DNA of 64,000 nucleotides. Origin: Escherichia coli (lineage in GTDB: Bacteria > Pseudomonadota > Gammaproteobacteria > Enterobacterales > Enterobacteriaceae). Shown one piece after another: positions 9,512 to 11,781 of this stretch. The DNA lies in the NCBI RefSeq assembly GCF_003790525.1, contig NZ_CP033635.1; one strand, given 5' to 3'. A program made the position numbers and the translations under genes. Position 1 is the stretch's first letter. Each line of letters starts with the position of its first letter. The notes beneath the pieces are model-generated. The model saw only the letters and a program-made list of their open reading frames with translations. It was not told the DNA's origin and made no database searches.

Positions 9512-10332
9512 GTGTGCCCGGAGTTCAGGGCGGGCATGGATGCTTAAATGAACCGCGAGTCTGTCTGGAATATTGAACCGGTAACTCACGATGAGAAACC
9601 CAACAATCCCACCGGGTGTGACGGTGGAGAACCTGAGCGGCAGTGACCTGCGGCATGCCCGCAGGGTGATGTAACCCGCTGACAACGGGGATTGAGGCGA
9701 GATCACTAAGCCGAGATGATCCTCAAGGTTAAGTACTGAAAGGCTGAAGAACATGAACCCGTTAATCCGCCTCTGTGGGTTGAAAACGTCACCACGGCCT
9801 ACGTGATCTGACAGGCCGTGCAGGAGGAACTGGCAGTGATACGTAAGCACTGCCGGTCGAAGGTGTTTTGACATGTATGCGAAACACCGGGGCAGCAGCG
9901 TCTATCACGCTTGCATTGCTGACTTCTGCCAACTTGCGGCAAGCAAGGATAAAGAGTGCGACGGGCAGCCTCCTCAGTATGCCTGAGTCCAGGCCGGTAA
10001 ACCGGGGAAGGTCAGCGACGGATGTTAAGGGGGCATGGCTCCGATGACGCGCTGGCTGGCGGAGCTTCCGTAGTAGTCCGCGATGGGGAAAGCCCATTAC
10101 ATGGCGAAGGGAAGCAGTTTGAATGTGTTTGCGACGTGAATTAACTGACCTAACGAGGTGAAGACCTTTGATAATCAGCGAAATGCAACGCAAGCTTGCC
10201 ACATGGGCAGCCACCGATCCGTCCCTACGGATTCAACGGCTGCTGCGTCTGATAACACAACCAGAATGACTGGCTGAAGCGGCGCGGATCACGCTTTCAT
10301 CAAAGGGGGCCCATACCCCCGGCGTTGATGGC

Positions 10333-11691
10333 GTGAACAAAACAATGCTACAGGCCAGACTGGCTGTTGAGCTGCAAATCCTCAGGGATGAATTACTCTC
10401 AGGCCACTACCAGCCCTTGCCCGCCAGACGGGTTTACATCCCTAAAAGCAACGGCAAACTGCGACCACTGGGTATCCCCGCGTTGCGGGATCGTATTGTT
10501 CAGCGGGCCATGCTGATGGCGATGGAGCCGATATGGGAGAGTGATTTTCATACGCTCTCATATGGCTTCCGGCCTGAGAGCAGTGTCCACCACGCGATCC
10601 GCACGGTGAAATTACAGCTCACAGACTGTGGTGAAACCCGGGGACGCTGGGTGATTGAAGGCGACCTGTCCAGTTACTTCGACACCGTACATCATCGACT
10701 GCTGATGAAGGCTGTACGCCGCAGGATCAGTGACGCACGTTTCATGACTCTGCTGTGGAAAACCATCAAGGCGGGACATATCGATGTCGGTCTCTTTCGG
10801 GCGGCCAGTGAAGGTGTGCCACAGGGCGGTGTTATATCGCCGCTATTATCGAACATCATGCTGAATGAGTTCGATCAATACCTGCATGAGCGCTACCTGA
10901 GCGGGAAAGCCAGAAAAGATCGGTGGTACTGGAATAACAGTATCCAACGGGGCCGAAGTACGGCGGTCAGAGAAAACTGGCAGTGGAAACCCGCGGTGGC
11001 GTACTGCCGCTATGCCGATGATTTTGTCCTCATCGTCAAAGGCACCAAAGCACAGGCGGAAGCCATCAGGGAGGAGTGTCGGGGTGTGCTCGAAGGCAGT
11101 CTGAAACTCAGGCTGAACATGGATAAGACTAAAATCACCCATGTTAATGACGGCTTTATCTTTCTGGGGCACAGGATCATTCGCAAACGCAGTCGTTATG
11201 GCGAGATGCGAGTGGTCTCAACGATCCCGCAGGAGAAAGCCAGAAACTTCGCCGCATCGCTGACAGCACTGTTATCAGGCAACTACAGTGAAAGCAAAGT
11301 CGATATGGCTGAACAACTCAACCGAAAACTGAAAGGCTGGGCCATGTTCTATCAGTTCGTTGATTTTAAGGCCAAAGTCTTCAGTTATATCGACCGTGTC
11401 GTGTTCTGGAAGCTGGCTCACTGGCTGGCCCGCAAATACCGTACAGGTATCGCTTCCCTGATGAGGTGGTGGTGTAAATCACCGAAACCGGGTCAGAGCA
11501 AAACGTGGGTTTTATTTGGTAAAACCAATCACGGCAAGCTCAGCGGCGAAATACTGTACCGGTTGGTGGGGCAAGGCAAGAAGCTGTTCCGCTGGCGGCT
11601 ACCCGAAGGTAATCCCTATCTGAGGACGGAGACCAGAAACACGTATACATCGCGCTTTACAGAAGTGGCAATGGCGTTCGCCAGCATTTAA
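10333..11691 (+). CDS. group II intron-encoded reverse transcriptase/maturase (N-terminal region disrupted upstream)
   Basis: RT motifs including YADDFV (RT5) and maturase X domain; no endonuclease domain; upstream RT0 frame carries TGA at 10267-10269. Confidence 0.8.
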   Translation: MNKTMLQARLAVELQILRDELLSGHYQPLPARRVYIPKSNGKLRPLGIPALRDRIVQRAMLMAMEPIWESDFHTLSYGFRPESSVHHAIRTVKLQLTDCGETRGRWVIEGDLSSYFDTVHHRLLMKAVRRRISDARFMTLLWKTIKAGHIDVGLFRAASEGVPQGGVISPLLSNIMLNEFDQYLHERYLSGKARKDRWYWNNSIQRGRSTAVRENWQWKPAVAYCRYADDFVLIVKGTKAQAEAIREECRGVLEGSLKLRLNMDKTKITHVNDGFIFLGHRIIRKRSRYGEMRVVSTIPQEKARNFAASLTALLSGNYSESKVDMAEQLNRKLKGWAMFYQFVDFKAKVFSYIDRVVFWKLAHWLARKYRTGIASLMRWWCKSPKPGQSKTWVLFGKTNHGKLSGEILYRLVGQGKKLFRWRLPEGNPYLRTETRNTYTSRFTEVAMAFASI

Positions 11692-11696
11692 ATGGA

Positions 11697-11730
11697 GAGC
11701 CGGATGCGCTGAAAGGTGCACGTCCGGTTC
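11697..11730 (+). ncRNA. group II intron domain V (catalytic hairpin)
   Basis: GAGCCGGATGCGCTGAAAGGTGCACGTCCGGTTC, 34-nt hairpin with GAAA loop, immediately after IEP stop. Confidence 0.75.
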
Positions 11731-11781
11731 GGGGAGGAGAGGCAGGGAAATAGTCCGACTACGCCCTGCCTCTTACTCTAC

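Follow-up and report, generated by a model that had tools for sequence, protein, structure and literature searches.

A decayed copy of the group II intron E.c.I4 probably joins two different IS3-family elements in an Escherichia coli genomic island

Introduction

Does an intron whose flanking transposase frames join perfectly sit in a single host gene, and is it still a mobile element? The question is raised by positions 9512–11781 (+ strand) of a 64,000-nucleotide stretch of Escherichia coli DNA (contig NZ_CP033635.1; hereafter the window). A first-pass annotation had described this segment as a group II intron that splits an insertion sequence (IS) transposase gene of the IS3 family and whose splicing would restore an intact transposase frame. 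Here, we report that the insert is a group II intron, the catalogued element E.c.I4, and that this copy is very probably a decayed one that joins two different ISs through recombination between intron copies. As a discovery, the element adds little: E.c.I4 and its preference for IS3-family transposase genes have been published, and the copy is already annotated by NCBI as an ltrA pseudogene. The locus offers a concrete example of the prediction by Leclercq and Cordaux (2012; PMC3522654) of intron/IS tandems as recombination substrates, followed by decay. It also illustrates that a perfect in-frame exon junction is no proof of a single host gene, and that each flank needs to be compared with an uninterrupted element.

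Results and Discussion

The intron and its boundaries

The limits of the insert were determined by comparison with uninterrupted targets. An empty IS629-like site (locus L006, ...GATTTTACTTACG|TCAGCACATGG) and an empty ISEc52 site (L003, ...GATGTGACCTATA|TCTGGACGGG) each revealed the exact intron junction. An occupied IS629 (L002) and an occupied ISEc52 (L004) carry the same 2270-nt insert at the same points. Since the uninterrupted IS629-like and ISEc52 sites fix positions 9512 and 11781, both boundaries are exact, and the intron is full length (2270 nt, 9512–11781, +). It starts with GTGTGCCCGG at 9512 and ends with CTCTAC at 11781, in agreement with the 5' GUGYG and 3' AY termini of group II introns.

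The Rfam model Intron_gpII (RF00029, domains V–VI) matched positions 11695–11781 with 64.9 bits (gathering score, 40; E = 1.7e-10). Domain V (11697–11730, +) forms a 34-nt hairpin with the AGC triad, a 2-nt bulge, and a GNRA loop, and one of its pairs covaries as G-C, U-A, and C-G among the aligned relatives. Domain VI (11733–11779, +) has a single bulged A at 11775, the predicted branch point, at position −7 from the 3' end, and seven of its pairs show compensatory changes. Together, domains V and VI fold with z = −5.8. The GTGTG start, the AC end, the open reading frame (ORF) with its YADD motif, and the domain V hairpin listed in the first-pass annotation are all present. Two of the checks that it had proposed also gave positive results: the scan with group II intron models yielded the Rfam match, and folding, combined with a search for pairing between the exon-binding sites (EBS) of the intron and the intron-binding sites (IBS) of the exon, recovered domains I–III, V, and VI and an EBS1–IBS1 pairing of 6/6 bp (described below). 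With exact boundaries, domains I–III, V, and VI, the EBS1–IBS1 pairing, and a reverse transcriptase (RT)/maturase ORF in domain IV, the insert at 9512–11781 is a group II intron.

Exons from two different insertion sequences

The 5' exon (8717–9511, +) is the left part of an IS629-like element of the IS3 family and is 97–99.5% identical to IS629-type elements. It comprises the left inverted repeat (IRL; TGAGCCGCCCCGGG...), orfA (8771–9097), the region of the frameshift, and the N-terminal half of orfB, which ends with the ...WVADFTY codons. In L002, which holds a bona fide IS629 flanked by a 3-bp target duplication, the identity is 97%; it rises to 99.5% in L006, where the IS629-like element is intact and its annotation includes a programmed frameshift. 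The 3' exon (11782–12269, +) is the right part of ISEc52, an IS911-like member of the IS3 family. It contains the C-terminal half of orfB and the right inverted repeat (IRR; ...GTTGACCACTTCA), is 100% identical to uninterrupted ISEc52 (L003), and shares only ~50% identity with the 3' part of IS629. The N-terminal halves of the IS629-like and ISEc52 OrfB proteins are 25% identical.

The outer ends of the element further supported this assignment. The left end (TGAGCCGCCCCGGG...) and the right end (read as TGAAGTGGTCAACAAAA...; in reverse complement of the window strand, TGAAGTGGTCAACAAAAACTGGCCACC...) have no inverted-repeat match and are unrelated, whereas the two ends of ISEc52 itself do match each other. 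No target-site duplication was found around the element (flanks ACC versus TCT), while CTT flanks the genuine IS629 of L002 on either side. The element thus lacks the matching ends, the target duplication, and the orfA and orfB of one origin that an intact IS would have.

The exons join in one frame (...WVADFTY-V-WTGKRW...), and to this extent the claim of a split IS3-family transposase gene whose frame is restored by splicing holds. The claim of a single gene does not, because the flanks belong to IS629-like and ISEc52 elements whose OrfB halves are 25% identical and which lack matching ends and a target duplication. It is only the interruption of the two ISs at the homologous codon that keeps the joined frame open. 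After splicing, the ORF would be an in-frame hybrid that corresponds to neither parental transposase and lies on an element whose ends do not match. Within the 5' exon, Rfam also identified an ALIL pseudoknot, the IS3-family frameshift stimulator (9052–9168, +; RF01497, 111.7 bits).

Decay of the intron copy

The RT/maturase gene of the intron (10168–11691, +), a pseudogene in this copy and annotated as ltrA with 'internal stop' in identical copies, would encode 507 amino acids from the TTG at 10168 or 502 from the ATG at 10183. Pfam matched only RVT_1 (residues 86–332, E = 7.9e-34) and GIIM (residues 356–421, E = 1.3e-10), and no HNH endonuclease domain was detected by Pfam in the intron-encoded protein (IEP). 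The RT active-site motif YADD lies at 11011–11022 (+).

The first-pass annotation had overlooked an in-frame TGA at 10267–10269 (+), where the frame reads ...ITQPE-stop-LAEAA. This premature stop replaces Trp29 (counted from the ATG), a residue invariant in 106/106 full-length homologues. The codon is TGG in L002, L004, and L014, and ltrA is intact in the first two. An intact ltrA product is available as WP_001189123.1. NCBI marks the copies identical to the window locus (L001 and L005) as 'internal stop' ltrA pseudogenes.

Three further changes distinguish this copy. Codon 133 (10579–10581, +), in the RT motif GFRPxRSxHxA, is AGC (Ser) in place of CGC (Arg), and the residue is Arg in 105 of the 106 homologues. 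An A>C change at 9995 (+), specific to this locus lineage, converts a U-A pair of a long-range domain I helix into U-C. In the comparative alignment described below, the window provides the sole non-standard cell of this pair (85–536), and U-A is kept in the other six introns. A G>A change at 9915 (+), likewise specific to the lineage, breaks a C-G pair of the domain I stem CAGCAGCG/CGUUGCUG, which was read by eye from the sequence and its relatives; other E.c.I4 copies have G at this position. Strain G3X16-2 (L014) carries the same chimeric locus and shares these three changes (R133S, 9915, and 9995) but has TGG instead of TGA, which indicates that the stop codon is younger than the chimera and represents the most recent step.

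These observations suggest that this copy is probably a decaying relic, rather than an intact mobile intron. As its own maturase gene is interrupted, splicing cannot be taken for granted. Deprived of a cis-encoded maturase, the intron would be expected to splice poorly or not at all and to be incapable of retrohoming, and judging from its sequence neither the intron nor the IS is likely to be mobile.

An alternative is that the intron still works, through low-level UGA readthrough or the maturase of another E.c.I4 copy, so that mRNA for a hybrid transposase is made. The ribozyme core (domains V and VI and EBS1) is unchanged relative to active-looking copies, and many E. coli genomes carry several E.c.I4 copies, with matches at up to 20 places per genome. 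In E. coli, UGA followed by C is a weak terminator and provides a leaky context, in which near-cognate reading by tRNA-Trp would insert the original Trp. Positions 10267–10270 read UGA-C, and the knockout may therefore be leaky, although this is speculative. However, a working intron would have to tolerate R133S at an almost invariant Arg and two broken domain I pairs, and the locus is the sole matching place in several of the chromosomes that carry it, with EH01-18-02, EC529, and ET474 as examples of strains that have no other E.c.I4 copy. We therefore consider continued activity unlikely.

Origin of the chimera

The parental arrangements, native IS629::intron (L002) and native ISEc52::intron (L004), both exist. 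The window-type chimera (IS629 5' exon, intron, ISEc52 3' exon) was found at 100% coverage in at least 60 E. coli chromosomes, with all listed matches being chromosomal, and the full 5.5-kb locus including hsdM is present in 31 independently assembled complete genomes at 99.7–100% identity. The reciprocal chimera (ISEc52 5' exon, intron, IS629 3' exon) was detected in at least 12 records. Within the 64-kb window, neither a second intron copy nor the missing IS halves were found; the only related piece is a 335-nt ISEc52-like 5' fragment (20588–20922, +).

Two loci bear on the history of the chimera. In E. coli MS 119-7 (L006, 1855–3210), an intact IS629-like element directly adjoins the terminal 45 nt of E.c.I4 (domain VI), with the ISEc52 3' exon and hsdM beyond them. 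This remnant indicates that the right-hand unit descends from a native ISEc52::E.c.I4 beside the restriction-modification cassette. The absence of a target duplication here suggests that most of the intron was lost in an IS-mediated deletion. In strain 2452 (L001), the left flank, the 5' exon, and the intron including the TGA are identical to those of the window. Positions 6270–6760 of this locus correspond to window positions 11782–12269. After the first 100 nt of the 3' exon, L001 continues with a different ISEc52 variant, and lldP/dld takes the place of hsdM in the right flank. This switch indicates a second recombination, within the IS.

Judged from these end products, the most likely origin of the chimera is homologous recombination between two E.c.I4 copies that were nearly identical and resided in different ISs. 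Guided by EBS–IBS pairing, E.c.I4 would home into IS3-family transposase genes at the conserved coding site W-x-x-D-x-T-Y | (V/I)-W-T-G. Recombination between one copy in IS629 and another in an ISEc52 next to the type I restriction-modification cassette would then have brought two parts of a genomic island together. At a later stage, a sub-lineage would have acquired the nonsense mutation, and the locus would now be passively inherited with the island. If splicing occurs, with maturase supplied in trans, it would produce an mRNA for a hybrid transposase. Overall, we consider a decayed E.c.I4 copy that joins two different ISs by intron-copy recombination to be highly probable.

Several points weigh against this explanation. 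We infer the recombination from its end products, and no crossover could be mapped; the single-nucleotide polymorphism markers of L002 and L004 are private to those copies and absent from the window copy. With regard to target recognition, EBS2 and the delta/EBS3 contact are only candidates, EBS2 being backed by conservation without clear covariation. As for decay, UGA readthrough might yield some full-length protein, and maturase could be provided in trans by an intact E.c.I4 copy located outside the window in the same genome.

The hybrid IS629/ISEc52 might instead have formed first, by recombination or nested transposition, with the intron subsequently retrohoming into the hybrid site. Such a site keeps the IS629 IBS1 and IBS2 and the conserved T at +1, and would hence be a usable target. 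However, no contiguous intron-less junction of the window type was found in 5426 complete E. coli genomes. A joined-exon query placed both halves together in only one of these genomes (L006), as separate pieces ~560 bp apart. The ~50% nucleotide identity of the two ISs around the site makes a crossover exactly there improbable without the intron, and both reciprocal chimeras were found, each with the intron. A hybrid that preceded the intron is thus quite improbable.

Even less probable is that an intact, autonomous mobile intron homed into one IS3-family transposase gene, with splicing restoring this transposase. The canonical intron features are all present, the exon frames join, and sister copies with intact ltrA do reside in single ISs (L002 and L004). 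The reading is contradicted by the in-frame TGA at an invariant Trp, and by exons of IS629-like and ISEc52 origin with mismatched ends and no target duplication. Finally, although repeats of 2–3 kb are classic places of misassembly, an assembly or sequencing artefact behind the chimera or the stop codon can practically be dismissed, given a 5.5-kb locus 99.7–100% identical in 31 independent assemblies, a chimera core in at least 60, and internal stops independently annotated in L001 and L005.

Intron-copy recombination has been considered in the literature. Ectopic recombination between group II intron copies was discussed, with reference to Wolbachia, in PMC3522654, where intron/IS tandems of >3 kb were also predicted to promote rearrangements. 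Our observations agree with that prediction in that dispersed intron copies provide portable homology. They differ in that concrete products are available here, namely reciprocal IS629/ISEc52 chimeras in many E. coli genomes, the origin of which is inferred. On balance, it appears somewhat more probable than not that E.c.I4 copies, as 2.3-kb stretches of portable homology, have repeatedly mediated recombination between different IS3-family elements, generating both chimeras and joining island modules. If so, intron-mediated recombination would be a recurrent and traceable driver of mosaic E. coli islands. In the present case, a sugar-utilisation segment and a type I restriction-modification cassette would have become linked in this way, within an island seemingly beside a tRNA(CAU) gene.

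Ribozyme structure and exon pairing

An Rfam E-value scan of positions 9400–11900 for domain I–IV models detected nothing beyond domains V/VI. Because Rfam has no domain I–IV model that matches class A introns, domains I–III were recovered by comparative folding. The alignment comprised the window intron and those of six loci (L008–L013), i.e., seven class A introns, and a consensus structure was calculated with RNAalifold. It predicted 148 pairs 5' of the ORF, 69 of which show compensatory double changes. Standard pairs occupied 97.4% of the cells, versus 33–42% when the partners were slid by 1–3 columns, and none of 500 shuffles reached the observed values. The covariation supports the predicted domain I–III architecture, with domain I at 9517–10006 (+), domain II at 10007–10060 (+; helices 21–22, seven pairs with compensatory changes), and domain III at 10064–10115 (+; helices 23–25). 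A domain IVa hairpin (AGGUGAAGACCU; 10156–10167, +), which contains a Shine-Dalgarno sequence and is invariant in the seven relatives, lies immediately 5' of the conserved TTG at 10168. By analogy with other group II introns, it may be the binding site of the IEP.

EBS1 (CGUAAG; 9842–9847, +) occupies the terminal loop of a hairpin with the stem CUGGCAGUG/CACUGCCGG. The loop is perfectly complementary to IBS1 (CUUACG; 9506–9511, +), the last 6 nt of the 5' exon, giving 6/6 bp. Both sides have changed together in the relative L010 (UGUAGC with GCUACG). A candidate EBS2 (ACGUCACC; 9786–9793, +), conserved in all seven relatives, is located ~50 nt 5' of EBS1. Across exon positions −9 to −16, its pairing amounts to 8/8 in ISEc52 and 6/8 in IS629 (5/6 over the core register), and the same register gives 6 bp in L010. 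From the pairing register, UGAUUU at exon positions −14 to −9 (9498–9503, +) is the candidate IBS2.

The relatives L010, L011, and L012 likewise interrupt transposase genes of the IS3 family at the homologous codons (W-x-x-D-x-T-Y | (V/I)-W-T-G), and the first base of the 3' exon is T in 7/7 aligned introns. The EBS1 loops of L008 and L013 mismatch their current 5' exons; these two may be ectopic or rearranged copies and were not used as evidence.

An unbiased k-mer search suggested an alternative EBS2 at intron positions 497–505 (9-bp match), which was rejected because this segment falls in domain II. A single-sequence minimum free energy fold of the 5' 671 nt reached only z = −3.4 and was partly at odds with the covariation structure. 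For instance, the local CCGG-UAAA-CCGG hairpin that the C at 9995 would create is outside the consensus structure.

Identity of the intron

Based on its sequence and insertion site, the intron is the already catalogued E.c.I4 (= S.f.I1) of bacterial class A and is nothing new as an element. Using megablast, we found it in 2668/5426 complete E. coli genomes, mostly at ≥99% identity and annotated as ltrA; roughly 2300 full-length copies occur in this genome set. The K-12 gene ykfC corresponds to intron nt 1–1764 at 99.5% identity. As E.c.I4-tr1 is listed as a 1764-bp class A fragment in prophage CP4-6 of MG1655 (PMC3522654, supplement), this match identifies the window intron as E.c.I4. Introns with >95% nucleotide identity to a named intron take its name (PMC3552965); the window copy exceeds this value in an indirect comparison, at 99.5% over the 1764 nt of the K-12 fragment.

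Full-length E.c.I4 copies are tabulated at 2271 nt, and insertions at specific positions in IS629, IS911, ISEc16, and ISEc31 have been reported (PMC3522654). The first-pass annotation was right about the homing of bacterial group II introns into IS elements, which has already been published for E.c.I4. E.c.I4/S.f.I1 belongs to class A, whose proteins have no endonuclease (En) domain (Toro and Martinez-Abarca, 2013; PMC3552965). The window intron shows both class traits, an En-less protein and insertion at a specific site of IS3-like (IS629, IS911 group) transposase genes.

The window copy resembles catalogued E.c.I4 in its identity (99.5–100%), length (~2270 nt), En-less RT/maturase, and IS629-/IS911-type insertion site. 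It differs in W29stop, R133S, the two pair-breaking changes in domain I, and its exons from two ISs. Like ykfC, which is the same intron located 3' of an IS3-family transposase fragment, it is inactivated; ykfC, however, is cut at nt 1764 by IS5, whereas the window copy retains its full length and owes its inactivation to point mutations. RmInt1 of Sinorhizobium meliloti (class D, homing into ISRm2011-2) and E.c.I2, E.c.I3, and E.c.I9 (homing into Rhs-type IS elements or IS679) are likewise bacterial group II introns that target IS transposase genes, but they belong to a different phylogenetic class and use different target sites.

In 2013, class A was described as comprising three nearly identical members. 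The repaired protein has thousands of homologues, many with 68–90% identity in other gammaproteobacteria (e.g., Rahnella, Microbulbifer, Endozoicomonas, Legionella, and Photobacterium). With hundreds of relatives in this range of protein identity, a covariation-supported structure can now be derived.

Genomic neighbourhood

On the left, a truncated IS256-like IS1414 transposase gene (7924–8703, −) that lacks its N-terminus abuts the IS629-like IRL. The other IS1414 half is not beside the right end of the chimera. On the right, a type I restriction-modification cassette (12462–~20400, +) consists of hsdM, hsdS, a DUF4268 gene, and hsdR. It lies between the ISEc52 3' half and the 335-nt ISEc52/IS911-like 5' fragment mentioned above (90.7% identical), both in the same orientation, an arrangement suggestive of a former composite element whose inner ends these two pieces would have been.

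At 32241–32316 (−), ARAGORN called a tRNA with a CAU anticodon as Met. Given its distances of 21 kb to sibD/sibE and ~25 kb to the ribB riboswitch, this tRNA is probably ileX, and it appears to mark the boundary of a ~32-kb island that holds the intron. In E. coli EH01-18-02 (L005), which carries the identical locus, mcr-1.1 (26848–28473 of L005) is located ~10 kb 3' of the restriction-modification cassette, amid IS30 and IS66 fragments; the collinearity of this strain with the window ends at window position 22666. The remaining Rfam matches are unremarkable for E. coli and comprise two SIB antitoxin RNAs (sibD/sibE-like; 53140–53289 and 53516–53665), a flavin mononucleotide (FMN) riboswitch (57131–57279), and an IS102 RNA (23988–24224).

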